Positions 31,965 to 64,000 of a stretch of 64,000 nt of DNA are shown here, one piece after another. Below the pieces are notes generated by a model. It was not told the origin of the DNA. It was given only the letters and a program-made list of their open reading frames with translations, and did not search any database. Within the stretch, counting starts at the first letter, position 1, and every line of letters starts with the position of its first letter. The stretch lies in NCBI GenBank assembly GCA_963765495.1, contig CAVXWP010000002.1:32001-96000 (forward strand), in the 5' to 3' direction. The translations under genes and the position numbers were made by a program. Source of the DNA: Blastocatellia bacterium. Its GTDB lineage: Bacteria > Acidobacteriota > Blastocatellia > UBA7656.

Positions 31965-32168
31965 ATGAGCGCACAACTGATTAAACCGAAACTATGGACA
32001 CCTGAGATGCTGGCCGAACATCTTGGAGTCAGCAGGAAGTGGATTTATCACCGCACTCAATCCAACGGGCCTGAGCGCATTCCCCATCTCAAAATGGGGA
32101 AATTGCTGCGCTTCGATCCCGATTCTGAGGACTTCAAACAGTGGCTTCAATCCCACAGGCAAAATTGA
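31965..32168 (+). CDS. excisionase-like HTH protein
   Basis: LWTPEMLAEHLGVSRKWIY..IPHLKMGKLLRF; directly upstream of the integrase. Confidence 0.85.
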   Translation: MSAQLIKPKLWTPEMLAEHLGVSRKWIYHRTQSNGPERIPHLKMGKLLRFDPDSEDFKQWLQSHRQN

Positions 32169-32242
32169 CAATGATGCTAAATGGCCATAAAATATTACCC
32201 AACGACAGCAAAGCACGGGCTATCGGAAAGGAGAAACTTTCG

Positions 32243-33443: not shown

Positions 33444-33488
33444 TGGTTGCGGGGACGGGATTTGAACCCGTGACCTTTGGGTTATGAG
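33444..33488 (-). pseudogene. 3' half of tRNA-fMet(CAT), att-site duplication
   Basis: Minus strand reads CTCATAACCCAAAGGTCACGGGTTCAAATCCCGTCCCCGCAACCA (anticodon loop, T arm, CCA); no D arm or 5' acceptor strand upstream. Confidence 0.85.
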
Positions 33489-44722: not shown

Positions 44723-45787
44723 CTAAAGGTAATTCTTCTGCATCTCGGTAATTTCTTCCTGAATCTCTTGTCGCAATTCCTTTGGCGCTATTACCTGTGC
44801 ATGCGAGCCGTACTGCATCACAAAGCGTTTCACTCCATCCAAAGCTGTCACATGCATCTTTACCCTCAGACCGCCATCCGGCATCTCTTCGCGCTCCTCG
44901 GTAGGGTGGAATTTGCCCCGCTCGCGCATCCATCGCGCTTGATACTCATCAAATATAATCTCAACCTCGATAGGATTCTGGCCCCTTATCATCGCAAAAC
45001 CTGATTCCAGGTACTCCCGCAGATCAAATTCTTCCGGCCAGCCGAATCGCTCCTCCGTAACTTCTAACTCGCGTATGCGGCCTGCATGAAAGTCCCGTAT
45101 CCCACCGCGCAGATGATCAAACGCGATCAGATACCATTCGCCCAGGTAGTTCCTCAGGTGAAGTGGATCAACTTGCCGTCGCGTCATCTGCCCACGGTTG
45201 GCAGTATAGTATGTCATCTCTATGCGGAGGTGCTCTTTAGCCGCTCGGCCAAGCCTACGAAAAAGCTCAGGGTCTAGCTCGCTTGTGGCTTGTGCTTCAA
45301 AGGAATATGCCTCAGCCAGTGATCCCAGATCGACAGATACAAGATCAGTCATTGCGCCTATAACCTTGCTGAACGCTGTCTCAACCTGATGAACTATGGC
45401 TGTGCCCCTATACTGTTGAACAAGCCGCTCGGCCAATAAGATTGCTACAAGATCGCCCTCAGAGAGTTCGATTGCCGGGAGGGCGTATGTCGGCTCGGTG
45501 TAATACCAGCCACGGTGCTCATACGAATATGCCAATGGCAACCGAAGTCGATCACGCATAAAGTCTACTGTGCGTTGCGCGGTCTTCGTACTAACTTCGA
45601 AATGATTGGCTATAGTGCGCGCGGTTGGATACCGGCCTAAACGAATTTCCTGATCTATCCAGAAAACACGTTCTAAGTGTCGTAAGTTCTCGCGGCTTTT
45701 CTGACTCGAATTCTGCTTCATGATCAAGCCATATTCAAACATGTGATGTAGGACATCTAGTGTCCTATCAAAAATTTCTCTACTCAC
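44723..45787 (-). CDS. WYL-domain transcriptional regulator (HTH-WYL-WCX)
   Basis: IA..FEVS.KTAQR..D; R.VDPL.L....GEWYLIAFD..R...R.F...RI; directly upstream of cas3. Start may be 45721. Confidence 0.92.
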   Translation of the reverse strand: MSREIFDRTLDVLHHMFEYGLIMKQNSSQKSRENLRHLERVFWIDQEIRLGRYPTARTIANHFEVSTKTAQRTVDFMRDRLRLPLAYSYEHRGWYYTEPTYALPAIELSEGDLVAILLAERLVQQYRGTAIVHQVETAFSKVIGAMTDLVSVDLGSLAEAYSFEAQATSELDPELFRRLGRAAKEHLRIEMTYYTANRGQMTRRQVDPLHLRNYLGEWYLIAFDHLRGGIRDFHAGRIRELEVTEERFGWPEEFDLREYLESGFAMIRGQNPIEVEIIFDEYQARWMRERGKFHPTEEREEMPDGGLRVKMHVTALDGVKRFVMQYGSHAQVIAPKELRQEIQEEITEMQKNYL

Positions 45788-47620: not shown

Positions 47621-48604
47621 ATGAGCAATCTTGTTCAAGGTCTTGTCTATGATCGTGCTCCTTACTCAGATGACCGTTTCAATATCCTGCTCGCCCTGGC
47701 TGATTGGGCCAATGATGACGGACGCAGTTGCTACCCCAGTTTGATAAAGCTTGCAAGAAAAGCAAGAGTCAGCTACCGCAATACCATCTACTCAATTCAA
47801 AAGCTCGAAAACGAACGCATCAACGGCGAGCCTATGTTGAACGTCACTCGTCACAAAAAGAAAGGTCTCGCAAACGAGTACTTCATCAACGTTCCTCTAC
47901 TTGAAAGCCTCCCCTACTATTGGCCGGAGAGTCTACAAAACAGAGTGCAACCATTGCACCCAAGCGTTCTGAAAAAGGCTGTGGAAAAAACTCGGCTCAA
48001 GGGTGCAACCAGTGGAAAAAATAGGGTGCAATCTAGGGTGCAACCCAAGGGTGCAATGGTTGCACCCCATCCATCATGTCATGCATCCATCATGAATCAA
48101 CCACCATTAGATGCAACCGTCAATCATGACGGAGGAGAGACTGTGGAAAACTTTCAGGAGAATCTTTTCCCTGATCTCTCGCCTGCCGAGTTGGTCGAAT
48201 TTGCGGGCGCGCCATCTCTTCCTATCGGGGGGCGATATGTCCGAGACGAAACAGACCCGGGCGGATGGAGTCAGGTCGAGGTGATGGAAGCATACAAAGA
48301 CATGGTGCCGCACGCCCTGAGCAACGATGATAGAAAAGAACTCCAGAAGATCCGAGACTTTCCTTTCTCCACACAACTAACCATCTACGTAATGCACAAG
48401 ACCAAAGCGAAAGCCGGCAGCCCGCCCGGCTCAATGAAGTACTTCCGTATTGCGCTCGAAAGGCTCTGGATAGATTGCTCCATAGCCATTGCAAAGGTGA
48501 GAGACGAAACCTATTCAATGACACGCGAGCAAGCCTTTTGGAAACTGAACGATGCTGTTTTGAAAGAAATTGCGCTGTGGGAATGTAGGCTTGGAAGAAG
48601 CTGA
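47621..48604 (+). CDS. phage replication initiator with N-terminal HTH
   Basis: ILLALADWANDDG.SCYPS...LARK..VS.R..I..L; internal iterons. Confidence 0.8.
   Translation: MSNLVQGLVYDRAPYSDDRFNILLALADWANDDGRSCYPSLIKLARKARVSYRNTIYSIQKLENERINGEPMLNVTRHKKKGLANEYFINVPLLESLPYYWPESLQNRVQPLHPSVLKKAVEKTRLKGATSGKNRVQSRVQPKGAMVAPHPSCHASIMNQPPLDATVNHDGGETVENFQENLFPDLSPAELVEFAGAPSLPIGGRYVRDETDPGGWSQVEVMEAYKDMVPHALSNDDRKELQKIRDFPFSTQLTIYVMHKTKAKAGSPPGSMKYFRIALERLWIDCSIAIAKVRDETYSMTREQAFWKLNDAVLKEIALWECRLGRS
47943..48068. repeat. iteron cluster (putative origin inside rep)
   Basis: GGGTGCAA repeated four times, plus inverted TTGCACCC copies. Confidence 0.75.
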
Positions 48605-49931: not shown

Positions 49932-50918
49932 ATGAAAAAGCTCCTCTTTTCCACTATTCTAATCCTCACAATCACTATTCAGGGCCTCTCATTCGGCGCT
50001 CAAGGTCACAAGGCGGTCGGTATGATCGCCCAGGCGAGGTTGAACCTACAGGCCGCCGCCGCTGTCACACGCCTGCTTGGAAATGGTGTCACTTTAGCTG
50101 ATGTAGCGACCTAGCCGGATGATGTGAAGCAAGCTAAGAGACGGAGAGGCCCTCTCAGGAATGATCCTGAGGCGAGAGCCTTCAACACAGCATTTCCTGA
50201 TAATGGAAGCTGGCACTTCGTCAATATGGCGCTTGGAACAAACTCTTACGCGGTCAATGGACCATTCAGCACGCAACATGACATCGTTCATATGATCAAC
50301 ACATGCATCCGTATACTTGAAACGCCTGGAAACCAAAGGACGCCGTTCACAAAGCTCCAGGCGCTCCGATGGCTGGTGCATTTGACTGGTGACATTCATC
50401 AACCTTTGCATGTCTCTGCCGGATACTATGAGTTTGACGATCAAGACGATGCCCTATTGATCGTAGACCCTGCGAGGGCTCTCGAACTTCCCCAGGATAG
50501 AGGCGGCAACTTGCTATTTTTTGGGACGGGCAGTAGCGATGAATTGCACGCTGTCTGGGACAACTTGCTTGTGCGAAGGATCGCCAATACACCTAACTTC
50601 AATCAACTCGCGGATTTCATCCTCTCAAGACTTAACGATCTTACCTGGATGAATCAGCGCAGATCTATGTTGAGTACTCCCGGTGAATTTCATTCGTGGG
50701 CATCCCGATGGGCCACTGACTCTCTTTTTCAGGCTCGGCAAGCCTATCAGGGAATCAGAATCGGAAAGACGACCTTCGATTCAGATGGAGACATTGTCTC
50801 GATTCAAATTGTTTTCCCTGATCATTACCTTGATAGACATGTGGAGCGCGAGACTTTACAGGTGGCAAAAGCTGGGTTCCGCCTTGCGGAATTACTCAAC
50901 AGGATAAACTGGAGATAG
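49932..50918 (+). pseudogene. secreted S1/P1 nuclease with in-frame TAG at 50112-50114
   Basis: GH..V..IA, A.(W)PD with W as TAG, WHFVN, LVHLTGDIHQPLH, DRGGN, LHAVWD, AGFRLA.LLN; both ORFs share one frame. Confidence 0.88.
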
Positions 50919-51520: not shown

Positions 51521-53701
51521 TTACGAGGCAAGGAAAGCTACCTCACCAGCCGCATCATTTAACAACTTTATGTATTCATCCGTATCATAACGCGAAGCAT
51601 TTTCTACACACTCCGCTCTCACTCTTGATGTTCTTGTCTTTGATCGCGCATCGCTGATTATGTAACCTACGCGCTCTCCCGGATGTACTTTGATTCCTGC
51701 TTCTCTCATCTGTCGCCCTGCTATAGCCGTTCGCGTCTCTGTCGTGTAATCGTCTAGCTCTTTCGTCAGCCTCCGCTTTACCAGCAATTTCTTTGGCTCT
51801 ACCTCGTCTCGCTTCAACTCGTCAATTCTTTTCTGTAGCAACTCCCTTGCTTGCTCCATCCTCTTCGCCCTTTCCTCGAGCGTTCGCGCTTTCGCCACGA
51901 TTGCCAGCATTTCTATCTGCACCTCTTTGATAAACTCAGGTGTATCCGATCTCCTACAGGCCAGCCCTCGCAGCTTCAGATTGCCGCCTGTAAATACCCC
52001 ATAATACCGGCACGCCACAGGACGGCTTCCTTTCTGCTTTGAAGACAGAAAGATTATCCACTTATAAATCCCTTCCAATGCCATCTCTACTCCGGTTGCT
52101 CGCGTGATCTCGTCGCATAATTCAAGCACATCCGTTTCGGTCAGAGACTCGCGCTCGATCCAGAGACTGTCGGTTAGCGCGTGTAATACGCTGAATCCTG
52201 CGCTTTCTGCAAGCTCTTTCGCCTGTAGCAGCTTCTCTCGCCCGAATGCCGTTGTCGCTTCGTGCGCCTCTATTCGACCAAAGCGGGCATTCTTATATCC
52301 GAGATAGCCAAAGCAGGATACAAGCATCCATTTGATGACCGCCTGCCTGGAATCATATTTCTCTCGCAGCCGATTATCTTTACACTCTCGCAGCATTCGC
52401 TTGTATTGCTTTCGACGCTCAAGCAGCGGTTCAAGTGTGAGCGGAATCAGCCCTCGCCGCCTCTCGCAGATGTTGTAGCCTGCTTCGGGCACGGTTCTGT
52501 TCTCACAGCAAGGGCAAAGCACGGTTTCCGGCGAGATGTTATGACGGACCATAATCGCCGGATACATGGAGGCAAAGTCTATCTCTGCTACATTCTCGAA
52601 AGCCCCAACCTTTTGCTGAAACGTAAGCCCGCCCTTATCTATCACAAGCAACTCAAGCGCCGTTTTGTAGCTCTCAGGCTCGCTCTTGTGCCAGGGCACA
52701 AGTATCCCTTCACCTGTAGCCCTGTCCATCTCCATAGAGGTCATCGCAGAGCCGGGACTTGTTCGCGCCATCCTCTGTACGGGAATCTTTGCGAGCCGCG
52801 CAAGCTCGATAAGTCCATCTAATCCCGTTTCGCCATAGAGAAATGAGTTTTGACCATCAATATGCCAGCGTCCGAATAGCGGATACGAAGGCCCTTTGTA
52901 GATTATCCTGCCATAGCTGAAATATGTACGCCCCTCCGTGACAATCTTTCGCTCAGTTACAACGCGGTCGCGGTCAAGCATCAAGTCAATCTTTTCTCGT
53001 TTGGCAATTTTCAGCAGGGCCGGAACGAGTAGCGTATCGCCTCGCTCGCTCAGGATCACATCGGGGTTGTATCGCTCTATCAGGCCATTGAATTCCTGCA
53101 CGGCTCGCGCGCCATCTTTAAGCCGAAGCGTTACTCGCTCGCCCGCATATTCAAGAATAATGCGGCTGTTGTAATTTGTGGGCCGCATCCTCTCGCCCCG
53201 CATCCTCAGCACCCGCAGACTGGGGAGCTTATAGCCGGTTTCCCACACCGAATCGGTGGCGGCGATCTTAAGGATGGTGCCCGCGCTATCCACTTCACAA
53301 GCAATGCGGCACAACGGAAAGAGTTGTCTCAGGTAGAGATAATATTGAGCCGTAGGTATGTCGCAATTGTAGAAGGTAATCTCTTGATCGAGCGAGGCCG
53401 CAAGACTTCTCAACTTCGGCAGCAGCGAAGAGTCGGCAATCTGCAATTCAAGCACTTCAATCAGGTTACCGCTCCAAAACTCTCGCCGCTCGGTCCATCT
53501 CACATTCAATACAATGCCGCGCCGATTCAACTCCCCGGCAAGCTGCCTCAGCCTCGCGCGCTCGCCTTGAACATAAACCGGCGGGTGAAACTCATCGGTG
53601 AGTCTTACAAGATTTCCGTCATCGGTATAGACCCATAAGGCGACCTGCGAGCCAAGCTCATCAAGATCGAATAGCCATCCTTCAAGCCGCCGATTCGCCA
53701 T
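51521..53701 (-). CDS. polB: family B DNA polymerase, PolB2-like
   Basis: DKGGL, DFASMYP, K..LVSCFGYLGYKNARFG and LTDS (degenerate DTDS); exonuclease motifs not evident. Confidence 0.9.
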   Translation of the reverse strand: MANRRLEGWLFDLDELGSQVALWVYTDDGNLVRLTDEFHPPVYVQGERARLRQLAGELNRRGIVLNVRWTERREFWSGNLIEVLELQIADSSLLPKLRSLAASLDQEITFYNCDIPTAQYYLYLRQLFPLCRIACEVDSAGTILKIAATDSVWETGYKLPSLRVLRMRGERMRPTNYNSRIILEYAGERVTLRLKDGARAVQEFNGLIERYNPDVILSERGDTLLVPALLKIAKREKIDLMLDRDRVVTERKIVTEGRTYFSYGRIIYKGPSYPLFGRWHIDGQNSFLYGETGLDGLIELARLAKIPVQRMARTSPGSAMTSMEMDRATGEGILVPWHKSEPESYKTALELLVIDKGGLTFQQKVGAFENVAEIDFASMYPAIMVRHNISPETVLCPCCENRTVPEAGYNICERRRGLIPLTLEPLLERRKQYKRMLRECKDNRLREKYDSRQAVIKWMLVSCFGYLGYKNARFGRIEAHEATTAFGREKLLQAKELAESAGFSVLHALTDSLWIERESLTETDVLELCDEITRATGVEMALEGIYKWIIFLSSKQKGSRPVACRYYGVFTGGNLKLRGLACRRSDTPEFIKEVQIEMLAIVAKARTLEERAKRMEQARELLQKRIDELKRDEVEPKKLLVKRRLTKELDDYTTETRTAIAGRQMREAGIKVHPGERVGYIISDARSKTRTSRVRAECVENASRYDTDEYIKLLNDAAGEVAFLAS

Positions 53702-53984
53702 TGTTCCCCTTCAGAGACTTCAATTGCTCTTCAAGCTCATTTACTCTTGATTCCAGCTTTTCGATTGACTTCCAGCCTTCTATAAGTACTGAGATGAAGA
53801 AGGCTTCAGCCGGGTCGGGATTCGAATAATAAACAGCCGCCTGTATGTGCAATCGGGCTTGCTCGAATAACGCGTCTAACGCCTGCTGGTCTTCTTTACG
53901 CAAAGCGCGGCGAAACTTGTTGAGTTGTTGCTGCTGTTCGGCAAGCACCTGGCTAAATGGCAGAAGTGTGCGCCCCATACTCAA
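53682..53984 (-). CDS. small helical PolB2-associated protein
   Basis: MGRT......W/L..FRRALR.EDQ..D.LF..AR.H pattern; overlaps polB. Confidence 0.75.
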   Translation of the reverse strand: MSMGRTLLPFSQVLAEQQQQLNKFRRALRKEDQQALDALFEQARLHIQAAVYYSNPDPAEAFFISVLIEGWKSIEKLESRVNELEEQLKSLKGNNGESAA

Positions 53985-54604
53985 CCTCCTATGATATGGT
54001 CTAAGGCCGCGAGGTAAGGAAGCGCCACGCGGCGACGGTTTTCGAGCGCAAATGTATGCTTGCTGCCCAGACGCAACACCACGTCAGACGCCCGGCAAAG
54101 GTCTGTCAAGAAATAGGTGCGGCGGGTGGCTTGTGGCATCTGGCTTTGAACCAGCACCAGCGTCATCCCGTCATTGACAAGCCCTACAATCTGCCAGAGA
54201 GCGCGATAGAACAGGCGCGCGGCGTCTACGACCGAAACATCTTCATCGAAAAAGGTAGAGCATGGCCCCGAAATCACAACCAGATCATTTTGCAGGTTAG
54301 ACTTGAGCCTGCCGACAAGCTCGACGAACTGATAAACAGTGAAAGCGCGAGCAATCAGGATTGATTGCAACGCGCTTTCCGGCCTCACTCCTTTCAACTT
54401 TGCAAAGAGCGACACAGCATAAGGATCGAATCGGTTATCTCCACAAATGAATCTTACCTGTCGTCTCTCACAAACAGCGCGAGCGATAACATAAGTAGCA
54501 AGCCCCTGAGCGCCATCGCCGCACAGCAACACGCTGCGAGCAGGAGCGAGCGAGGCAAAGGCTACAGTCTGGGCCATGCTGATGGAGAGAGTTCTTGAAA
54601 CCAT
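53981..54604 (-). CDS. inactive RecA/RadA-like (ImuA-analogous) protein
   Basis: ICGDNRFDPY..IARAFT.YQ..FFDEDV pattern; no Walker A lysine. Confidence 0.75.
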   Translation of the reverse strand: MVSRTLSISMAQTVAFASLAPARSVLLCGDGAQGLATYVIARAVCERRQVRFICGDNRFDPYAVSLFAKLKGVRPESALQSILIARAFTVYQFVELVGRLKSNLQNDLVVISGPCSTFFDEDVSVVDAARLFYRALWQIVGLVNDGMTLVLVQSQMPQATRRTYFLTDLCRASDVVLRLGSKHTFALENRRRVALPYLAALDHIIGG

Positions 54605-54608
54605 AAGC

Positions 54609-55226
54609 TCAATCTCTGGACTTGTATCTGCGGAGTACGCCAATGACAACACCCTGAATATCCACCCGCTCAGAGGCATTGATAAAGATCGGTTTGTAAC
54701 GCGGATTTGCGGCTTCCAAACGAATACGACCCCGCTCCCTGTAGAATCGCTTTACGGTGGCATCTGTGCCGTCGATGAGAGCAACTACAGTCTGCCCGTT
54801 GTCGGCTGTCTGGCGAGATTCAACAATGATGAAATCCTCATCGAGAATACCTTCTCCAATCATAGAATCGCCTCGCACCCGCAGGGCGAAGGTGCGATTA
54901 TTCCCAAGCATAGTATGAGGAACACAGATAGACTCGCTGCTGAGAATAGCTTCAATAGGATGACCGGCGGCGATGACACCAAGTAAAGGTATCTCGCAGT
55001 CATTCTCGAATACAGGGGAGCCAATGATTTCAATGCCTCTACTGACATTGGGGGTGCGCCGTATAAACCCTTCTCGCTGTAAAGCGGAGAGCAGAGAGTG
55101 AACAGTGGCCGGAGAGCTAAGGCTGAACTGGTTGCGGATTTCAGCGATAGTAGGCGCATGGCCATGCGCCTGGATGAAGCGACAAAGATAATCAAACACC
55201 TGGTTCTGGCGCGGAGTAATGGTCAT
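54609..55226 (-). CDS. lexA: SOS repressor LexA
   Basis: TPRQ..PT..EI..S..TV..L..L...G.I; AAG cleavage site; VRGDSM; TVKRF. Confidence 0.95.
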   Translation of the reverse strand: MTITPRQNQVFDYLCRFIQAHGHAPTIAEIRNQFSLSSPATVHSLLSALQREGFIRRTPNVSRGIEIIGSPVFENDCEIPLLGVIAAGHPIEAILSSESICVPHTMLGNNRTFALRVRGDSMIGEGILDEDFIIVESRQTADNGQTVVALIDGTDATVKRFYRERGRIRLEAANPRYKPIFINASERVDIQGVVIGVLRRYKSRD

Positions 55227-55497
55227 AATTCGTCTCCTGGCGAAAATCTACTATCCATGATCGAAAATAAACGAAAATTGTCAAGGGATAAAATACTTCC
55301 GACCATGCCCCACCATTTTTTAGAAAAGGAAGTAATCAGAAAGTGGTCAACCTCTTCCAGATCATCGAAAAGGTAATCACTCCTGATTTTATTCCGCGCA
55401 AGCTACTACTTGCCCTGATCCTTCGTAAGATTCATATCTCTATTGACGTCCTGATGCGGCTGTAGTATATGCTTTGCCCGTTTGTAGGAGAACAACC

Positions 55498-57183
55498 ATG
55501 ACATCCCCGGATACTCTCAAACCACCACAAGAGTCTACCTTCAAATGTGACTGTGAAGATTGGATGCGTTCTGCCTGTGAGGGTGAGCCTTTCTACAAAG
55601 AGCATGAAGGCAAGCAGTACTGTGTGCTTCACTCTCCAGAAAAAGAAAAGAGTGAGGCTTTCAATGAAGCCCTAAACAGAAAGCTTGAGAATAAAGACTT
55701 TGATTTTCGCGGTGTATGGTTCCCCGATGATGTGGACTTTAATGGATTTGAATTCAGCGCGTCGGCGGACTTCTTCTCTGCTAGATTCAGCGAGAAGGCC
55801 GACTTCCAATCTGCAAAATTTAGCGCGTGGGCGGATTTCCGAGCTGCAAAATTCAGCGAGAAGGCGGACTTCCGAGCTGCAAAATTCAGCGAGAAGGCCG
55901 ACTTCCAATCTACCACATTCAGCGCGTCGGCGAACTTCTTCTCTGCCAGATTCAGCGAGAAGGCCGACTTCCAATCTGCAAAATTTAGCGCGTGGGCGGA
56001 CTTCCGATCTGCCACATTCAGCAAGAAGGCCGACTTCTTCTCTGCCAGATTCAGCGAGAAGGCCGACTTCCAATCTGCAAAATTCAACGAGAAGGCCGAC
56101 TTCCGAGCTGTCACATTCAGCGCGTCGGCGGACTTCCGGTCTGCCACATTCAGCGGGAAAGCGATCTTTTACTCTGCCACATTCAGCGCGTCGGCATACT
56201 TCTCCTTAGCCACACTCAGTGGGGAGGTGGATTTCTACTCTGCCAAATTCAGCACGTCGGCGTACTTCTCTGTTGCAACATTCAGCGGGAAAGCGAATTT
56301 TCACTCTGCCAGATTCAGCGAGAAGGCCGACTTCCAATCTGCAAAATTCAGCGAGAAGGCCGACTTCTCCTTTGCCACATTCAGTGGGGAAACATCCTTC
56401 GCCTCTGCCGCATTTAGCGGGGATGCGTCCTTCTCCGAGGCTACGTTCAAAGATCAGGTCAGGTTTGTCGGGAATGACGGGAATCGGATTTTTAGTGAAG
56501 AGTCTACAGTTGATTTTCAAGTTAAACTCATTGAAAAGCCTGACCGAGTTTCTTTTCATACAGTGACTCTTTGCCCAACCTGGCTCATCAATGTAATAGA
56601 TGCGCCTAAGTTCGAGCTTACGAACGTGAAATGGGTTGAGGGTGTCACCAAACAAGAAATCAAAACGTTGAAATCCAGAAATGTTGAATCACCCCATCAA
56701 CTCCTTTCTATTGCTTATCGCAATCTTGCAGTCAACACCGAAGAGAATCACCACTATGATAGGGCATCAAGGTTTCGTTATAAGGCGATGGATGTGCTCA
56801 GATGTGAAAATTGTAGGGGCTTCGCTTTCTGGTCGTTGGGTTGGTGGTACTGGGTTTCAAGCGGTTACGGCGAAAAGATCATTAGAGCCTTTTTTTGGTT
56901 CTTAGTAATATGGTTGCTATTTGCCTGGCTCTACACAAAAGTAGATTTTGCTCACCCGAATCCACAGGCTTCAACTGCGAATCAGGCAGCAGCCGCAGAT
57001 GTAGGCGAACCACTCAAGTTACCACGCGCCCTCACTTACAGTTTTGCAGTGATGAGCTTACAGAAACCGGAGCCACGCCCGGCAACAAATACGACTCACG
57101 CTCTGGTAACACTAGAAACAGTTCTAGGCCCCTTGCAAGCTGCGTTGCTTGCCCTCGCTGTTCGTAGAAAGTTTATGCGATGA
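55498..57183 (+). CDS. pentapeptide-repeat protein with C-terminal membrane domain
   Basis: About 20 units of 11 aa (ADFxSAxFSxx); N-terminal C..C..YCVLH; C-terminal SGYGE..TM..E.VLG...AL..LAVRRKF. Confidence 0.9.
   Translation: MTSPDTLKPPQESTFKCDCEDWMRSACEGEPFYKEHEGKQYCVLHSPEKEKSEAFNEALNRKLENKDFDFRGVWFPDDVDFNGFEFSASADFFSARFSEKADFQSAKFSAWADFRAAKFSEKADFRAAKFSEKADFQSTTFSASANFFSARFSEKADFQSAKFSAWADFRSATFSKKADFFSARFSEKADFQSAKFNEKADFRAVTFSASADFRSATFSGKAIFYSATFSASAYFSLATLSGEVDFYSAKFSTSAYFSVATFSGKANFHSARFSEKADFQSAKFSEKADFSFATFSGETSFASAAFSGDASFSEATFKDQVRFVGNDGNRIFSEESTVDFQVKLIEKPDRVSFHTVTLCPTWLINVIDAPKFELTNVKWVEGVTKQEIKTLKSRNVESPHQLLSIAYRNLAVNTEENHHYDRASRFRYKAMDVLRCENCRGFAFWSLGWWYWVSSGYGEKIIRAFFWFLVIWLLFAWLYTKVDFAHPNPQASTANQAAAADVGEPLKLPRALTYSFAVMSLQKPEPRPATNTTHALVTLETVLGPLQAALLALAVRRKFMR
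55740..56450 (+). repeat. 33-bp coding tandem repeat
   Basis: TTCAGCGAGAAGGCCGACTTCCAATCTGCAAAA-like units. Confidence 0.85.
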
Positions 57184-57239: not shown

Positions 57240-57440
57240 ATGAATAACCAACCTCAATCGAAACTGACCTCTCAATGGGATTTGTTATGGCAGGATTTGC
57301 AGAAGATCACTCAAGGCTGGCCAGAAGAAGAGGCGCGATACTTTACGAAAGTTTTCACCTCTCAACCTGGAAGAATAGCCTTCACGATTTATCTCGTAAT
57401 TGTGCTGGCTTTCATATTTGCAGTTTTCAAAGCCCTATGA
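57240..57440 (+). CDS. small membrane protein
   Basis: GGAG upstream; one C-terminal TM; converges on 57435-58307. Confidence 0.5.
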   Translation: MNNQPQSKLTSQWDLLWQDLQKITQGWPEEEARYFTKVFTSQPGRIAFTIYLVIVLAFIFAVFKAL

Positions 57441-58307
57441 ACCCAAGGGCTCCCAATTCCAGATCATAGGGAAGGTAATCACGCCAACCGCAGTGCCGCT
57501 CAAGCACCCACCCGGCCCGAGCCCCACATCATCAGCGCCGCTCACTATCTGGGCCATTGGGATGAGTTCAGTCCAGTCACTCTCATCGGTTGGATCGCTC
57601 GCCTTTGTCGAGTAATAGGTGTGAAAGATCGCCCCTCTCCTCTGCAACCTCACATAGCGCCCTGAATCGCCGCTCATGGTCTCGACCTGCGCCGCCGCAT
57701 CGTATTGATCAATTCTTGTGAACACAGCCGCGCCGTCATTTCTCACGCAGATGTAAACACCAAAACCTGATTCGAATCGAGCGCCGATGAATCCTCTGTA
57801 AGTCGGAGGCCCCGCAGGCACATCAACCGCCGCCCACACGTCGAAGTCTTTCATCACGCCCTGATAAAGCAACGAACCATCACCGGCCAGAACAGCAACA
57901 GGTGGCGCAATCTCCAACTCACCTTTCTTGTTCACCGAAAAGCCCGCTCCGCTCGCGGTCCAGAATGGATCGATCACCTCATGCTCGAAGTCATCAGGAA
58001 TGAACCAGGCGATCTCTCGACAGAGCGCAGTCTTTGTGTTGCTCTCCGGCGCGATCTGCACGACCTGGAGAACGCGCATTTCACCGACCGGACCCTTGAG
58101 AATATCGCCCACGATCACATCAGCGTTCGACGACACGCGCACGCCCATAGTGTAGGCTCTCGACCTCGCCCCGCGCGCCAGCACTTCGCTTATTCCGACT
58201 TCGCCGCGAAGTACCCGAACCCAGGCAGGCGAGATAGTAATCATCTCACTGCCGTAGCGAATGCGAGTAAACGAGGCGCGCGCCCAAGGCGTTTGTGTGC
58301 GTCTCAT
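57435..58307 (-). CDS. putative virion protein: head-closure-like N domain + ConA-like beta-sandwich
   Basis: Follows the capsid gene; VIVGDIL....MRV..V.......T...C.E resembles head-closure proteins; YVRLQRRG..F.TYYS.....WTE resembles DUF1349/ConA-like domains. Confidence 0.5.
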   Translation of the reverse strand: MRRTQTPWARASFTRIRYGSEMITISPAWVRVLRGEVGISEVLARGARSRAYTMGVRVSSNADVIVGDILKGPVGEMRVLQVVQIAPESNTKTALCREIAWFIPDDFEHEVIDPFWTASGAGFSVNKKGELEIAPPVAVLAGDGSLLYQGVMKDFDVWAAVDVPAGPPTYRGFIGARFESGFGVYICVRNDGAAVFTRIDQYDAAAQVETMSGDSGRYVRLQRRGAIFHTYYSTKASDPTDESDWTELIPMAQIVSGADDVGLGPGGCLSGTAVGVITFPMIWNWEPLGS

Positions 58308-58400
58308 AGTTCTACTTACTCAAGACACGAAGACCCGGCACGAGGAGATCAAGGCTTTGGCCCACGTCCTTGCGTCTCCCGCTCTCTGCGCCGGCAAACG

Positions 58401-59543
58401 CTATGGAATGCGCTTCACCTGGTCAGTGTCGCCTACAATCCCGGCATAGCGACCAAACCCTGCCAGGTCATCAGCATACTGCACCGGATCGAAACGACCG
58501 AACAGCGTCAGGTCCATTCGATAGCCGCCTTTGAGTTTTCCCTTGGGCAAGATCACATAGATGCCAGCCCCGTCGCCATCCACCGGAACATGAACGCTCA
58601 TCACTGGTCGGATGCGGAATTTCAAACGCTGCTTGCCTGCCGCCTGCTGAATCGCAAAGTCGGTGTTTGTTCTCAGCGCCCCATCAACCTCACCGGCCTT
58701 CTCAGGAGCGTACAGCACAACAAACTCACTGTTCGCGCTTGCGGAGTAGCCTTTCCCCTGAACTGCTCGCAGGATCGTAGCGCATGCGCCGTTGATCTTT
58801 GCGATCAGGTCAGCACCCTTATTGAAGTTGATCGTGTTGCCGAGACCGGTGATCAGCGAGTAGAAGGCTTTCGCCCGCTCGAAATAGTAGTCTTCTCGCA
58901 TCATGAAGAAGACATCCGAGATACTCATGTAATCCTGATCGTCCCAGTAAACGCGATCAATCGAGAGTCCCCCGCCGAACATATCGTATTCAACAGTGAC
59001 CTCAGACCCTCTGACCTGGCGCAGTTCAACCGGCTCACCCGGTAGCCGCTTCTTGAAAGTCACTCCGCTTGTGACATTCAGGATCTTGAAATAACTCTTG
59101 ATCAGTTGAGCCTCCGCCGTAGCTACGTCATGGATCATAAAGATTTGCTCGTAGCTTGTATCCATCTCACCAGGCGTTATCAAGAAGCGGTCTATATAGG
59201 CTCGGATATTTGCATCCGCAGGGAAGTCACCAAATGTTATCCCCTCTGTCACTCGTGCCCGCGCGCTGAATTCGTATAGCGAGGTCCTGAATTTTCGTCG
59301 TAGCTTCTCCGGAGCCCTCAAGAACTCTTGCAGGGCGACAACAGCGGCCACACGCCTGGCGGCCTCGCCGTTTCGCATTGCCTCAAGTACCCCTATCATG
59401 TCGAACTGCGACGGGTTCTGACGGCCATGCCCCTGCGCTCCCGGCTCAAACTCCCTTACTTGCGCGGCCCTCGCGTATAGGATCGCCTGATCTACCATTG
59501 ACGCGCCCTTAGGCCCACTCATCGGAATTAGATTCGTTCCCAC
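58401..59543 (-). CDS. putative major capsid protein
   Basis: About 380 aa, downstream of portal, protease and DUF2190; GGAGG RBS + GTG. Call is positional. Confidence 0.65.
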   Translation of the reverse strand: MGTNLIPMSGPKGASMVDQAILYARAAQVREFEPGAQGHGRQNPSQFDMIGVLEAMRNGEAARRVAAVVALQEFLRAPEKLRRKFRTSLYEFSARARVTEGITFGDFPADANIRAYIDRFLITPGEMDTSYEQIFMIHDVATAEAQLIKSYFKILNVTSGVTFKKRLPGEPVELRQVRGSEVTVEYDMFGGGLSIDRVYWDDQDYMSISDVFFMMREDYYFERAKAFYSLITGLGNTINFNKGADLIAKINGACATILRAVQGKGYSASANSEFVVLYAPEKAGEVDGALRTNTDFAIQQAAGKQRLKFRIRPVMSVHVPVDGDGAGIYVILPKGKLKGGYRMDLTLFGRFDPVQYADDLAGFGRYAGIVGDTDQVKRIP

Positions 59544-59626
59544 ATTACACCTCCCAGGCATCGGCAGTGAGCCGATGCTTCTCAAATTTGGAAATCTCAA
59601 CCTCGAATTCTGATGGCCAAAGGCTG

Positions 59627-60016
59627 TCAGACCACATCGGGGCTGAACTCGATAAACAGAGTGTTGCCCTCCAGCACCCCGCCGCTCAGATCCTTTGCCT
59701 CAAGCACTCGACCGCACAGAGTATTGCCGCCGGCAGTCTTTGTGAACTTGCCAGCGCCGTTGTCCCAATAGACCTTATCGAACACGCCGAAGTTCTCAGC
59801 AGCGATGTTTGAATCATCGGCTGCGGCGGTCACCTCTGCGCGCTCGACTTTGTAGACATACAGATGGTCCGCGCCATCTGCGTAGCTGTCGAAGGGAAAG
59901 ACAACCTTGCCGCTCAGGAGCTGAGGCGTCCCCTTCACCTTCGCCCCGGCTTCGGCCATCTTCTTGACAGTGCAGTAGGTACCCACCGCCGATCTGATCT
60001 CGATTACATCATTCAC
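59627..60016 (-). CDS. DUF2190-like capsid cement/decoration protein
   Basis: DKVYWD....FTKTA.GNT.CG.V.EA pattern. Confidence 0.75.
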   Translation of the reverse strand: MNDVIEIRSAVGTYCTVKKMAEAGAKVKGTPQLLSGKVVFPFDSYADGADHLYVYKVERAEVTAAADDSNIAAENFGVFDKVYWDNGAGKFTKTAGGNTLCGRVLEAKDLSGGVLEGNTLFIEFSPDVV

Positions 60017-60064
60017 GCCTCACCTCCAACTTGTCAGTAAATAGACACCTTTGAATTAGGCCGA

Positions 60065-60901
60065 TTAATCAGCAGGTAAGAATTCGTTAAACTTCGGATC
60101 AGTCAGACTCACCGCAGTGCCCTCCCCTTCCGGCTTCTTCTCAGTCGGAGCAGGTACTTTCTCCTCTGGCGGCTTGGGCGGTTCTTGCTTGCCAAAGATA
60201 TCTTCAGCATTCAGCCCCGCCTCTTTCACCTGCTCGATCAGTTCCTCCCTTGTCGGCTTCGCCGCTGGCGGAGGCTCCGGCTTCTTCTCAGGTGGCGGCT
60301 CGTCATCCGGGGGAGGGCAGAACTCAGACAGTGCCATCACCCGCGCGCCTGCAAACCCCGGCGTTTGCTTCGAGGTATGGCCGAGCACTACGCCAGTGGC
60401 ACGCTCCACATCCTCGACGATCATTCGCCCGGCCTGCTCGCTCACAACCACATCAGCCTCAATCGAGCAGCAGTCACGCTCTCCCTTGCGGATCGCTTCG
60501 CGCAAATCCGTCTGGTCGGCGTAGATATAGCCCACAGCTAAAGCCGACAGCACCCCGCTCAACTCCTGCCCTCGACTATGAAGGACCTCACCAACCGCAA
60601 CCCGGCTATCTTCGCTTCCATGCCAGTTGATGATCCCGTCATAGATGCGAGCAGGAACCCTACCGGCAGGATCGAAGGCATGCACCAGCGCGCGCACAAC
60701 TCGCTTGCCCCACTCTTTGACACGAGCGCCCAACCCCGACAGACTCCCGCTCGATGTGCCTTCGTGTCCGATGGTCATCTGCACAAAGAAAGGCGACTCA
60801 TCGGTCGCCACAATCTGCTGATACTGATGCGGGCCGATCAGCGCCTGCACGTCTGCCGCCGCCAGCTCTTTCACGCTTGCTCGAAGAAATACTCTCTTCA
60901 A
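60065..60901 (-). CDS. putative prohead protease/scaffold
   Basis: Position in the head module; H..R..VG, CSIE and PGF.GA motifs; Pro/Glu/Lys-rich tail. Confidence 0.6.
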   Translation of the reverse strand: MKRVFLRASVKELAAADVQALIGPHQYQQIVATDESPFFVQMTIGHEGTSSGSLSGLGARVKEWGKRVVRALVHAFDPAGRVPARIYDGIINWHGSEDSRVAVGEVLHSRGQELSGVLSALAVGYIYADQTDLREAIRKGERDCCSIEADVVVSEQAGRMIVEDVERATGVVLGHTSKQTPGFAGARVMALSEFCPPPDDEPPPEKKPEPPPAAKPTREELIEQVKEAGLNAEDIFGKQEPPKPPEEKVPAPTEKKPEGEGTAVSLTDPKFNEFLPAD

Positions 60902-60912
60902 ATCACACCTCC

Positions 60913-61464
60913 TTATGGATAGACACGGATCTCAATCGGTGTGTTAGACAGGAAATCGTCTCCCCCTGTACTCCCATCAAGAGCCAGGGTCACAAGACTT
61001 ACCTCGTTTGGAGAGTTTGGCGTTATTGAGATGAACCCGGCGGCATTTTGAACGTCTTGAGCATAAGCCACCGCAAACACCTTCTCCGCAGGAAAGGCCC
61101 CTGCGAGCGTGCCGGTATACGTCCCTACACCATCGCGAGTCCAAACAACTGTCTCGCCCAGACTGTTCTCAAACACCGTGGCAGTCGGCGCGCTTGTCCC
61201 ACTTTGCGAAAGTAACGCCACATATTTCTTGTATGCAGCTACTGGCGTATAAGTCACCGAGCCAACCGAGTTTGCGAGTGACCCGTTAGGAAACTTCAAC
61301 TGTCTGGCATTGAACACATCAGGCGAGCCATCAACCTCAGTGACACGAAGCCCTGAACCTTTCGCCCCAACCGACATCACCGGGCTTGAGCCAGTGTCAC
61401 AGATGACGCCAACAGAAAGCAGCAGCACAGCCATCACGGCAAGCAAAGCGAAAACCTTTTTCAA
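60913..61464 (-). CDS. hypothetical protein with signal peptide inside the head module
   Basis: GGAGG RBS, TTG start, hydrophobic N terminus; YVALLSQSGT.APT....N.LG..VWTR..VG.Y. Confidence 0.7.
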   Translation of the reverse strand: MKKVFALLAVMAVLLLSVGVICDTGSSPVMSVGAKGSGLRVTEVDGSPDVFNARQLKFPNGSLANSVGSVTYTPVAAYKKYVALLSQSGTSAPTATVFENSLGETVVWTRDGVGTYTGTLAGAFPAEKVFAVAYAQDVQNAAGFISITPNSPNEVSLVTLALDGSTGGDDFLSNTPIEIRVYP

Positions 61465-61482
61465 ATCGCACCTCCCCTCTCA

Positions 61483-61560
61483 ATTTTAGACTTTGGATTT
61501 CGGATTTTGGATTTCAATTTCTATCCGCTAATCCAAAATCGAAAATCCAAAATCCAAAAT
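61483..61560. repeat. low-complexity 7-mer palindrome
   Basis: (ATTTTGG)n...(CCAAAAT)n inverted array in an intergenic gap. Confidence 0.8.
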
Positions 61561-61859
61561 CAGACTGTGTGATCGTAATAGACTAACTCCACATCATCCC
61601 CATTGTTGGCCGCATCAAAGCGGAGGTCTGACAGATCGATCTCCCCGGCAAGCGGCGCTTCAAACTCAGGTGAGCTTGTCCCGGGTTGCAGCGCAGCCCG
61701 ATGAGTTGCATCTATGTCAGCCCCACCATAAAAGACCGCTCCCGCATTCCCAGCTGGAGCGTTCAAGATGAACTTCTTCGCCGTAGCCGCAGGACCATCC
61801 ACAGGAGTCCCCGCAGCAGGCACATCGATTAACATCGCTCGAACTCGAAAAGGCATCAT
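61560..61859 (-). CDS. hypothetical phage protein
   Basis: GGAGG RBS; A...N.G.VFYGG..DLS.L..D....GD.V pattern. Confidence 0.65.
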   Translation of the reverse strand: MMPFRVRAMLIDVPAAGTPVDGPAATAKKFILNAPAGNAGAVFYGGADIDATHRAALQPGTSSPEFEAPLAGEIDLSDLRFDAANNGDDVELVYYDHTV

Positions 61860-61923
61860 TCACCTCCCGGCTGTTAGTAATTGCGCGTTGCCGCGCCGAA
61901 AGAAAAATATTGAAAGAGTGCAA

Positions 61924-63315
61924 CTACATTATCTGTGTTCCCTCTGATCCCCCAGATAATTCCGGGTCAGTCCGGCCCCCGGCCCCCGACCCCTGGCCCC
62001 CGCGAGCGCCGCGAGCTATCCCCTCTTCTCGCCTTTGCTGTCTCGCCCTTCCTGCTTCGGTCTTCTCATCCACTCCCGGCAGCTTCTTCAAAAACTCCTC
62101 GTCGGTGATCGCTCCCTCTCTCCACGCCGGAAGCCAGACAGTCGCGATGTGGTTCCACGCCTCGAAGCTCACTACCTCTACCTCAACCCTGCCCGCTGTA
62201 GCCTGCAACCTGCTCCCTGTCTCCCGGTTGTACATTGCCATTGCTCGACCTACCAGATCAGTAAACCCGCTCCCCCACTCATCTGTTTCAGTCTCGCTGA
62301 TAGCAACAAACATCCGGCTTATGTCGTCTGCCGTAGCCCGATTGTTGAGCAGATCTGGAAACCCGAAGTAATGAGGCGGGACCGAGGTGTGACCGCTGAT
62401 GATCTTCACAAGGATGGTTATCAACTCGCTGTTTGCCGAATACGGCCCATACCCTATTTGCAGCATCGAAGGCTTGCCACCCACAGCAAGCGGATCACCT
62501 GCTTTCCAGTTCAGAGTTTTAAGCCTCTCTTGAAAGCTGCTTGCATCATCCTCAGTGTTGAACTCAAAACAAGGCGTAGGCTTCGAGGCTTTCGAGTTGA
62601 TCGTCTTAAAACAGATGATCGCATCGTCGAGGTCCTCAAGCTGCCCGAGGATACCCGCGAACAACGGAGTGCCTACATTCGAGTTCATCCGAGTGTGAAA
62701 CTTCATAAATGCAGTGCGACCGGCATCTACGTCATAGTCTAGCTGCGCGTCACCAAGCCAGCGGACATACTTGAAGTAACCATAATCCAGCGGGTCCGAC
62801 ACCACCTCATACCTTGTGTCATACCACGATACAAATCGAATCCGTGGAATATGATCCTCGCCGGGATTGAGCACAAGAAGCACCTGCCCCTCAAAGCATC
62901 TCTCCCTACCGAGCCGCCGCAGATAGGCCATGTTGAACCGATTGACCGCAAAGAACTCTTTTATAAACCCGGTCTCTGCCTCACCAACCCAACCCGTATG
63001 ATTCAGCCCCTTTCCAATCGTCCAGGCTGTGCGAGCCTCCAGAATGTTTCTCAGCAGGATATTGCCTTTGGCAGCCTGCCCTCGATACTTCCTGATAGTC
63101 TCATCAACTTGCATCTCACGAGTGAGATAGCGATTGCTCGACGTGCCTTGAAGCGCCTCAATCTGTAAGATCAAATCGCCAAGGTACTCGATTCCACCGT
63201 GTTCACCGAATTCTTGTGCTTTACGGCGCAAGGAGCGTCCGCGCTCCGGCCGCTTGCTGGTGTAGGAAAACTCGAAAGGCCCTAACTTCAAATTGCGTCC
63301 ACTTCTACCTGCCAA
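61924..63315 (-). CDS. putative portal protein
   Basis: 463 aa directly after terminase; G.PL...L..L, G.T.VP.HYFG....N.ATA and GAIT..E patterns. Confidence 0.75.
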   Translation of the reverse strand: MAGRSGRNLKLGPFEFSYTSKRPERGRSLRRKAQEFGEHGGIEYLGDLILQIEALQGTSSNRYLTREMQVDETIRKYRGQAAKGNILLRNILEARTAWTIGKGLNHTGWVGEAETGFIKEFFAVNRFNMAYLRRLGRERCFEGQVLLVLNPGEDHIPRIRFVSWYDTRYEVVSDPLDYGYFKYVRWLGDAQLDYDVDAGRTAFMKFHTRMNSNVGTPLFAGILGQLEDLDDAIICFKTINSKASKPTPCFEFNTEDDASSFQERLKTLNWKAGDPLAVGGKPSMLQIGYGPYSANSELITILVKIISGHTSVPPHYFGFPDLLNNRATADDISRMFVAISETETDEWGSGFTDLVGRAMAMYNRETGSRLQATAGRVEVEVVSFEAWNHIATVWLPAWREGAITDEEFLKKLPGVDEKTEAGRARQQRREEGIARGARGGQGSGAGGRTDPELSGGSEGTQIM

Positions 63316-63449
63316 AATGTGGGGCGGCGTTGACTCGACTACGAGTCTGCCGGGAGCCGCCCCGCTCGCCTTCTTAGATCAGGATAGATCTGATTTTCGT
63401 GAATATAAGCTGTACTTATATAATCGTCAAGTAGAATCAGGAATAGTTA

Positions 63450-64000
63450 TTAAAAGCATGAGGGGAGCTTCACCGCGAAGCTATCAGATCGAAAAGGAAA
63501 CTTCTTATGCACAACATAGCCCAGAGCGGCCCCAGGATGCGTCAACGGCCCCTTGTAGCTGTCTTTCAGCAACACATCCCAGGTACATTTCTCCAGATCA
63601 CCTCTGAGCAGCTTGCAGGATTTATCCACGAATAGATGACGCTCTCCCAGACTGTTGAAGATGCGCCCGTTGACGGCATTGATACGATCTTTGATGGGTG
63701 GATTTTTGGCCGGTCCACCAAGCTTGAACCCGGCCTCTTTCAAAATCTTATGATCGCTCGTTCCCGTAGTGTGTCTCTGCGCCCCGGCAGCATCGGGGAT
63801 CAGCACCACGCCCCCGACCCCATACCGGCGCTCAATCTCTTTCACCAGTTGCGGAGTATCGCCGCCTCTGATGTAAATCTCATCTATGACGTAAACATCC
63901 AGCCCCCGCACCTCGCAAGCATAGGCATGCATCCCCGGATCAACATTGAAATCAATCCCCACAAGCAATACTTCATCTGTCAACGAATACTCGCCCATAT
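63450..64000 (-). CDS. terL: terminase large subunit, C-terminal nuclease domain (partial)
   Basis: GIDFNVDP, VIDEI, PDAAG.QR, NPPIKDRINAVN, C..L..DLE. Confidence 0.85.
   Translation of the reverse strand, partial: MGEYSLTDEVLLVGIDFNVDPGMHAYACEVRGLDVYVIDEIYIRGGDTPQLVKEIERRYGVGGVVLIPDAAGAQRHTTGTSDHKILKEAGFKLGGPAKNPPIKDRINAVNGRIFNSLGERHLFVDKSCKLLRGDLEKCTWDVLLKDSYKGPLTHPGAALGYVVHKKFPFRSDSFAVKLPSCF

Follow-up and report, generated by a model that had tools for sequence, protein, structure and literature searches.

What kind of element carries genes for a phage head and for packaging DNA into it, with no recognisable gene for a tail? The question is raised by a 64,000-nt stretch of a Blastocatellia genome (the window; positions 32001-96000 of contig C2, in a 7.3-Mb genome of 17 contigs that is 97.9% complete), at whose right-hand end a head operon finishes in a gene for a 290-aa protein. 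An earlier note on the window had proposed that this operon belongs to a capsid-forming satellite or to a tail-less particle, a truncated prophage being the simpler alternative. Here the operon was found inside a 42.5-kb integrated element, and on balance we lean towards reading this element as a capsid-forming satellite which borrows its tails.

Boundaries and head operon of the element

Using exact k-mer search and blastn-short, two 45-bp direct repeats of 100% identity were found at window positions 33444-33488 and 76032-76076. The repeat is the 3' end of a tRNA-Met gene, and these two are its only copies genome-wide. The distance from att to att is 42.5 kb, and neither search found a third copy or an internal att that would split this region into two islands. 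The element encodes a 386-aa integrase (Pfam Phage_integrase 4.3e-26, phrog_1 9e-55), whose gene ends 26 bp from the tRNA-Met, a second, conserved tyrosine recombinase of 191 aa and an excisionase- or regulator-like HTH_17 protein (2.6e-9). The boundaries are:

33444..33488, no strand: left att repeat, exact 45-bp copy of the tRNA-Met 3' end
76032-76108 (window-equivalent, outside the window), minus strand: intact tRNA-Met (ARAGORN)

In window order, the element begins with a CRISPR array, a type I-E cas operon with a WYL/WCX regulator gene, an HTH_36 initiator and an S1/P1 nuclease, followed by a PolB/100-aa/232-aa/LexA cassette, a pentapeptide-repeat gene and the head module. Beyond terL there are two conserved small open reading frames (ORFs), the 191-aa tyrosine recombinase and SWIM, GIY-YIG and ArdC-like genes, and the right end holds the HTH_17 excisionase-like gene, two secreted-looking proteins, the integrase and then the tRNA-Met. 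The head module and the gene that it meets are:

63450..64000, minus strand: large terminase TerL, C-terminal 182 aa in the window (Terminase_6N, phrog_2)
61924..63315, minus strand: portal (phrog_27684 at 1.3e-11, an unnamed family; phrog_104 'portal' at 0.0067 only)
61560..61859, minus strand: 99-aa ORF, function unassigned, no Pfam or PHROG family match
60913..61464, minus strand: 183-aa ORF, hydrophobic signal-like N-terminus judged by eye only
60065..60901, minus strand: prohead protease/scaffold-like protein, 278 aa (by position and ESM-Atlas look-alikes; no named Pfam or PHROG family)
59627..60016, minus strand: cement or head-decoration protein (Phage_cement_2, PF09956, 1.5e-7; phrog_122 'head decoration' 6.3e-8)
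58401..59600, minus strand: major capsid protein (phrog_24071 2.5e-16; homologues match Phage_capsid_4)
57435..58307, minus strand: 290-aa protein, last gene of the head operon (head-closure-like residues 1-105, ConA-like residues 110-290)
55474..57183, plus strand: pentapeptide-repeat protein, 569 aa (Pfam Pentapeptide_3 3.8e-32)

Every ORF of the head module is on the minus strand, so that the operon runs from right to left. The genes that had been listed from terL to the 290-aa ORF are all present in their places, TerL being cut by the end of the window. The complete TerL has 442 aa (L002:1450-2778, window-equivalent 63450-64778; Pfam Terminase_6N 1.1e-6, phrog_2 1e-28). The gene previously called DUF2190 exists at 59627-60016, its family being Phage_cement_2, and the signal peptide ascribed to one gene of the module corresponds to the N-terminus of the 183-aa ORF. 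The convergent gene which the operon was said to meet is the pentapeptide-repeat gene, and a promoter and terminator scan between the two found nothing above chance.

Scans with a capsid alignment gave 148 related loci (4 from genomes, 67 from viral contigs and 77 from metagenomes), and the capsid protein has 31 homologues in a large protein collection, 28 of them at 45-64% identity. A portal homologue lies upstream of the capsid gene in 92 of these loci, and a homologue of the protease/scaffold-like protein lies between portal and capsid in 102. Pfam Phage_capsid_4 is matched by 11 of 23 aligned capsid homologues, while the window's own capsid protein, for which the database gene call starts 13 codons downstream of the ORF start and gives 386 aa, has no Pfam match. 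In the protease/scaffold-like protein the N-terminal 195 aa are conserved and the C-terminus is rich in Pro, Glu and Lys; its look-alikes, the YonD_N, DUF2213 and Peptidase_S77/S80 clusters (ESM-Atlas 0.94-0.97), serve as a lead only. Searching the PDB by sequence with the capsid profile, with the portal and with the protease-like protein returned no meaningful match. A 168-aa small ORF beyond terL is, by position only, a candidate for TerS.

Pfam and PHROGs were scanned over window positions 1-64000 and the 14 kb to its right, and no match to families of tails, tape measures, baseplates, holins or endolysins came from any scanned ORF between the att repeats or in the flanks. The claim that no tail genes follow the module thus held to the right of 64000 as well, where the rest of terL is followed by the small ORFs, the recombinase and the remaining genes listed above as far as the tRNA-Met. 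Because head genes are present and tail and lysis genes were not found, the borrowing of a tail from another phage appears most likely. The element would excise and replicate, and a terminase of headful type would load its DNA into capsids that the element makes itself. The portal vertex would then be sealed by the 290-aa protein, with a ring of lectin-like domains displayed around it, and the particle would become infectious only after acquiring a helper-phage tail, as in the 'tail piracy' of those phage-inducible chromosomal islands that form capsids (cf-PICIs).

In the 119-aa ORF just upstream of terL (L002:3082-3441, window-equivalent 65082-65441) a hydrophobic segment is combined with a charged coiled-coil tail. 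All three siblings keep this ORF at 35-36% identity, and judged by eye only it could possibly be holin-like.

Sibling elements, tailed relatives and known satellites

A hidden Markov model (HMM) of the 290-aa protein matched 3 of the 148 loci, L003, L074 and L075, with capsids at 51-57% identity. Three relatives share the protein: an element in genome G051, L003 (contig C46 of genome G001) and the short L075; L074 has the head module of L003, with equal identities gene by gene. The G051 element comes from the same phylum and family and from another genus. It is ~31.1 kb long, lies between copies of a 49-bp repeat from a different tRNA-Met, has an integrase at one end and keeps the same gene order from integrase to 290-aa homologue (TerL 70% identical, portal 50%, protease-like 44%, cement 37%, capsid 52%, 290-aa protein 33%). 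Directly after the 290-aa homologue come an OLD/GajA-like ATPase-TOPRIM gene (PADLOC 1.5e-16) and a PifA-like KAP NTPase gene (1.9e-52), with Dam, a replication initiator and HNH further on; no tail genes were found there. L003 reads recombinase, 168-aa ORF, 119-aa ORF, TerL (70% identical), portal (56%), protease-like (56%), cement (43%), capsid (56%) and 290-aa homologue (34%), after which come, on the opposite strand, three unknown ORFs and a phage-O-like replication initiator, with host-looking genes beyond. The absence of tail genes in homologous modules, which the earlier note had asked about, was thereby seen wherever the locus reaches far enough: relatives with the 290-aa protein end the operon at it and continue with cargo or replication genes.

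The two small ORFs of the head operon are less well kept. In G051 the corresponding position is taken by a 132-aa ORF which has no hydrophobic N-terminus and to which the C-terminal 115 aa of the 183-aa ORF are 45% identical, and no homologue of the 99-aa ORF was found in G051 or in the scan of related loci, L003 included.

Full-length 290-aa homologues are rare. Among 401 genomes of the phylum they occur in two only, the present genome (G000) and G051, seven others matching solely through a ConA-like domain inside large proteins, and a phylum scan centred on G001 gave nothing new. A narrower alignment searched against viral contigs produced 82 motif matches and 0 relatives, and the close clade was not seen among the 2.9 million viral contigs scanned.

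The distant capsid relatives present a different picture. In IMG/VR contigs such as L010, L043 and L047, whose capsids are 28-39% identical, the genes for portal, protease-like protein, cement and capsid are homologous to those of the element and keep its order, and the 290-aa family is missing. After the capsid gene come glycosyl- and methyltransferases and an SPP1-gp7-like minor head protein, and L010, a locus reaching far enough, also has a connector, Neck1, a terminator, an Ig-domain tail protein, a tape measure and a minor tail protein. Since these distant relatives are tailed and lack the 290-aa protein, the head-only design is a property of the 290-aa clade and not of the wider capsid family.

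In all 6 of the distant tailed relatives that were examined, a phrog_4603 gene ('alpha-2,3-sialyltransferase') stands right after the capsid gene. Methyltransferases are often next, and together they may form a virion glycosylation cluster. The phrog_4603 genes are:

L010:10997-12997
L043:11068-12003
L047:11099-11953
L057:11156-12031
L006:10137-10886
L004:11025-12554

A further sibling was found in the present genome, on contig C9 (172216-193118), between two copies of tRNA-Arg(CCG). It retains a pentapeptide gene, a 290-aa gene with internal stops (90% identical), an excisionase-like gene and an integrase. The direct junction of a capsid 3' fragment with a 3' fragment of an ArdC-like gene implies that the head module was deleted.

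Is the element itself, then, a siphovirus-type prophage from which neck, tail and lysis genes were deleted and into which cargo was inserted, its head genes being functionless remnants? The complete tailed phages among the distant capsid relatives, the clear decay of the C9 sibling, a cas3 gene that appears frameshifted and the lack of any known helper or particle would all suit such an origin. We nevertheless consider it unlikely, given that the same head-only end-point is met in three elements at 33-70% protein identity with head ORFs intact, and that two of them possess exact att repeats and intact integrases. Furthermore, the cargo after the last head gene differs from element to element, like a satellite accessory hot spot, and the 290-aa family has kept its length across 55 representatives. 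The truncated prophage thereby loses ground as the simpler alternative, with two att-bounded elements sharing one head-only design at such divergence.

How close is the element to the satellites already known to form capsids? The comparison was made by gene content with the cf-PICIs (EcCIEDL933, EcCIGN02175 and KpCIDSM30104 among them) as two sources describe them. In the first, cf-PICIs are ~10-18 kb long (median 14 kb) and release tail-less capsids which join free phage tails, the adaptor and connector setting the fit of the tail (10.1101/2025.02.11.637232). The second reports 969 cfPICI from Proteobacteria and Firmicutes, and 'Acidobacteri' has 0 occurrences in its text (PMC10085698). In these sources cf-PICIs are characterised by an integrase or site-specific recombinase, a replication module, a regulation module of AlpA, MerR or Stl type and a packaging module of their own with capsid, protease, portal, TerL, TerS and HNH. 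The element shares with those islands an integrative nature with an integrase and a putative replication gene, a TerL, a portal, a capsid, a protease-like protein and a putative head-completion protein of its own, the lack of a tail module and of lysis genes as far as found, and a variable region with defence genes after the packaging module. The life style expected of it, tail-less DNA-filled capsids that would take helper tails, is here predicted from its genes. The element differs in its host, probably Acidobacteriota as opposed to Proteobacteria and Firmicutes, in having a cement protein and a whole type I-E CRISPR-Cas cargo, in the absence of HNH (which G051 has), and in one stopper-like domain fused to a ConA-like domain in place of a recognised pair of separate adaptor and connector.

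Several points weigh against a tail-borrowing satellite. In size the element (42.5 kb, and 31.1 kb in G051) lies outside the 10-18 kb of cf-PICIs as given in that source. Excision, particles and transfer are predicted from genes, and no helper phage is known: tape measure PF10145, HK97-type capsid PF05065 and a further TerL were not found in the genome, and the only contractile sheath/tube clusters (n=2, at C3:211662-215103 and C4:138180-139436; PF04984 with T4-gp19-type PF06841) may be injection systems of a tail-like kind. Among Pfam and PHROG families none for a separate head-tail adaptor was matched, the sole neck-like domain being the N-terminus of the 290-aa protein, no HNH gene was found in this copy, and TerS is assigned by position only. 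The context of the 290-aa family consists of three genomes and two short metagenome contigs only. Elements of this family decay, as the C9 sibling plainly has, and the cas3 of the present element is split into two overlapping ORFs (41874-42944 and 42775-44700). The borderline likeness of the N-terminal domain, described below, is to be added to these points.

With regard to a helper, the TerL of the element is the sole PF03237 match in the genome, PF03354 has none, and when 1567 ORFs of related phage loci were compared with the genome by tblastn, neck or tail homologues outside the element did not turn up. As no terminase, capsid or tape measure was found elsewhere in the genome, the helper, if there is any, is not a recognisable resident prophage.

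The genes to the right of the window, the relatives and the domains of the last ORF were all checked, and the capsid-forming satellite came through supported and without refutation. In our best reading the element works like a cf-PICI and represents a separate, much larger lineage; membership of the cf-PICIs as described in those sources is not claimed. Capsid-forming satellites are already known as a kind, and in the open-access library that was searched none was found in print from Acidobacteriota. If the reading is true, tail-borrowing capsid satellites extend beyond Proteobacteria and Firmicutes to a hard-to-culture soil phylum, and the strategy extends to phage-sized elements of 31-43 kb that would transfer entire defence systems from cell to cell, in this case a complete CRISPR-Cas locus. 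Islands of this sort may be scored as 'incomplete prophages' by prophage finders.

The 290-aa protein and its proposed role at the portal vertex

What could the last protein of the operon do on a capsid without a tail of its own? No Pfam or PHROG family was matched by the 290-aa protein, and 0 of 34 family members match a head-closure family. A word-based homologue search retrieved the C9 copy of the same genome only. With HMMER, 55 cluster representatives were found among 1.84 billion at E <= 0.001, 43 of them at <= 1e-10. They are mostly 275-305 aa long, a few with N-terminal extensions, and since they align over nearly their whole length the protein represents a conserved two-domain family and not a chance fusion. 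In G051 the frame has 489 aa and contains two tandem copies of the N-terminal domain.

An AlphaFold2 model built from 34 sequences reached a mean pLDDT of 92.4 and a pTM of 0.87, and Foldseek with the whole model gave 50 PDB matches at E <= 1e-3. As modelled, the C-terminal domain (~110-290) is clearly a ConA-like sandwich, that is a curved beta-sandwich of jelly-roll type. It matches a GH43 C-terminal domain (6ms3_B) at Z 19.3 over 185 residues with a root-mean-square deviation (rmsd) of 2.8, the DUF1349-like 3mep_A at Z 17.7 (161 of 179 residues) and CBM66 (4b1m_A) at Z 14.6. Phage carbohydrate- or receptor-binding modules follow at Z 12.7-13, including 5ly8 (Z 12.8) and TM4 gp23 (Z 12.7), and Pfam DUF1349 is matched by 2 of 34 family members at 6e-4. 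The domain thus shares the fold of the ConA-like superfamily (DUF1349/GH43 C-terminal type) at 8-15% sequence identity, and sugar binding is predicted by fold only. Known phage carbohydrate-binding modules (CBMs) of this fold, for example the CBM2 in phage J-1's evolved Dit (5ly8), are located at tail tips and baseplates, whereas here the domain is carried by a putative head-closure domain.

The N-terminal domain (1-105), modelled alone, forms a small beta-barrel (pLDDT 84.2). By VIA it resembles XkdH (3f3b, Z 9.0, 78 aligned, rmsd 3.2), SF1141 (2kz4, Z 8.5, 92 aligned, rmsd 3.1) and the virion chain 6tba_3A of RcGTA (Z 8.1). By Foldseek, phage neck, connector or stopper proteins fill 18 of the 20 top rows (E 0.007-0.2, probability 0.9-1.0), among them those of SPP1, lambda, T1, T4, Chi, Douge and SaPI1 and PBSX XkdH. 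On the other side, no match of this domain reached E <= 0.001 with Foldseek, and hhalign against the ~96-aa and ~148-aa neck ORFs of the distant relatives gave probabilities of 0.3 and 0.1. Best Z values of 7-8 are common by VIA for models without a true match, which makes the N-terminal Z values borderline, and for this reason we hold the head-closure (stopper)-like assignment with moderate confidence. A complex prediction of the portal with this domain scored 0.00 and gave no answer, which is evidence neither way. The two-domain architecture proposed for the last ORF was therefore recovered with unequal strength, the ConA-like half being strong (Z 17-19) and the head-closure half moderate (Z 8-9, Foldseek E 0.007-0.2).

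Compared with siphophage stoppers (SPP1 gp16 7z4w, lambda FII 8k37/8xow, T1 9l0e and PBSX XkdH 3f3b), residues 1-105 share the beta-barrel, and the gene closes the head operon directly behind the capsid gene, in the usual place of a head-completion gene. The protein differs from the matched stoppers (88-165 aa) by its 180-aa ConA-like C-terminal domain, which they lack, and by having no sequence-level match to Pfam or PHROG head-closure families.

A Dit-like reading of the protein was considered and rejected: N-domains of Dit proteins score Z 6.2-6.6 compared with 8-9 for stoppers, and no two-domain match to Dit was obtained.

Might the operon instead encode a complete phage with a minimal tail, in which the 290-aa protein and the 99-, 183- and 119-aa ORFs build a very short tail and the lysis genes are too divergent to be recognised? 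Several ORFs of the module and its surroundings do lack a family, the hydrophobic segment of the 119-aa ORF could by eye be holin-like, and the N-terminal barrel fold occurs in tail-tube and Dit-type proteins as well (Z 6.2-6.6). We regard this as the least probable of the explanations weighed here. The candidates conserved among siblings are the 290-aa protein, the 119-aa ORF and, in G051 only, the C-terminal part of the 183-aa ORF, the 99-aa ORF not being among them; such a coding capacity is too small for a nozzle, fibres and an ejection apparatus. Moreover, no endolysin-like domain was found, and the fold search with the whole model gave no two-domain match to Dit or tail proteins.

The lectin-like domain also bears on the tail-less particle offered by the initial reading of the window. 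In such a case the 290-aa protein would close a self-sufficient capsid whose lectin ring binds cells, or the particle would serve the host in the manner of a gene transfer agent (GTA), with no helper tail in either case. A sugar-binding-type domain fused to a closure domain and a genome in which no helper prophage is seen would both fit. We give this little credence, since the element is mobile (integrase, att) and sits at different tRNA genes in different genomes, not at a fixed host locus. The presence of the full-length family in 2 of 401 phylum genomes is likewise a poor fit to vertical domestication. An RcGTA-type agent is a non-mobile host locus with head and tail, from which the element differs by its integrase, att repeats and different tRNA genes and by the tail genes not found. 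To our knowledge, no portal-containing HK97-type capsid delivers DNA without a tail.

Returning to the tail-borrowing satellite, one may speculate further on its neck, along a line that we think rather unlikely to hold. The 290-aa family would be a new neck protein, a stopper whose lectin domains form a ring that crowns the portal vertex of a tail-less capsid, so that glycan recognition governs the completion of the particle; the element would be a large armed satellite with CRISPR-Cas cargo, whose tail is chosen by a lectin and not by an adaptor and connector. The ring might dock onto glycosylated tails of a helper; in the distant tailed relatives of this capsid family, glycosyltransferase genes come next after the capsid gene. 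Alternatively, the ring might anchor the capsid to cell surfaces or to exopolysaccharide, at places where tails are free. Among titles and abstracts in the open-access library that was searched, no fusion of a putative head-closure domain to a ConA-like domain was found. The closure-plus-lectin protein is a testable candidate for sealing the capsid and for finding a tail or a cell.

Cargo genes and neighbourhood

The left part of the element, as far as the pentapeptide-repeat gene, contains:

33680..35808, no strand: CRISPR array, 35 repeats of ~29 nt and 34 spacers, the sole array with this repeat in the genome
35851..44700, minus strand: type I-E cas operon (cas2, cas1, cas6e, cas5, cas7, cse2, cse1, cas3; Pfam)
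44723..45787, minus strand: WYL/WCX regulator adjoining the cas operon (Pfam WYL 1.3e-18, WCX 2.9e-18; PADLOC WYL 4.4e-40)
47621..48604, plus strand: replication-initiator-like, HTH_36 (Pfam HTH_36 6.5e-6; phrog_1032 'replication initiation protein' 1e-7)
50124..50918, plus strand: S1/P1 nuclease, counted as cargo (Pfam S1-P1_nuclease 6e-29)
51521..55226, minus strand: LexA paralogue, 232-aa ORF, 100-aa ORF and family-B DNA polymerase, counted as cargo (Peptidase_S24, LexA_DNA_bind, DNA_pol_B 7.6e-41)

All type I-E components and an array are present, with Pfam families in order (Cas_Cas2CT1978, Cas_Cas1, CRISPR_assoc, Cas_Cas5d, Cas_CT1975, CRISPR_Cse2, CRISPR_Cse1 and Cas3_HD/DEAD/Cas3_C), and the locus lies complete inside the att-bounded element. 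The split of cas3 reflects either a frameshift or an assembly error, and the activity of cas3 is therefore uncertain. The spacers had no match in the genome itself or in the retrieved related loci.

HTH_36 or phage-O-like initiator genes also occur in the corresponding region of G051 and L003, the likeness being one of position and domain. No primase and no AlpA family match was found in the element.

The family-B polymerase has 726 aa and matches Pfam DNA_pol_B only, an exonuclease-domain match being absent. The LexA of the element is 67% identical to a second LexA on contig C8, and the cassette may be an SOS-linked polymerase module. The pentapeptide-repeat protein has a Cys-rich N-terminus and a hydrophobic C-terminus, is counted among the cargo as a membrane protein and matches no PADLOC family. 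Its gene adjoins the 290-aa gene both in the intact copy and in the decayed C9 copy, the two being ~56% identical.

A look-up of sequencing runs found one soil-metagenome run with 6% of the sampled words, and no RNA run.

The left neighbour of the element, window positions 1-33388, is an island of low GC (0.43-0.46) with its own integrase (32141-33388). As this second integrase sits to the left of the 45-bp copy in the same geometry, the tRNA-Met site is a tandem insertion site. No structural genes were seen in the island, and its far boundary was not found. Its genes, of the defence and insertion sequence (IS) kinds, include PrimPol-AAA_25, Mrr_cat, DUF6602 and Abi_alpha, several IS transposases and an ArdC-like gene which is 78% identical to the ArdC-like gene of the element.

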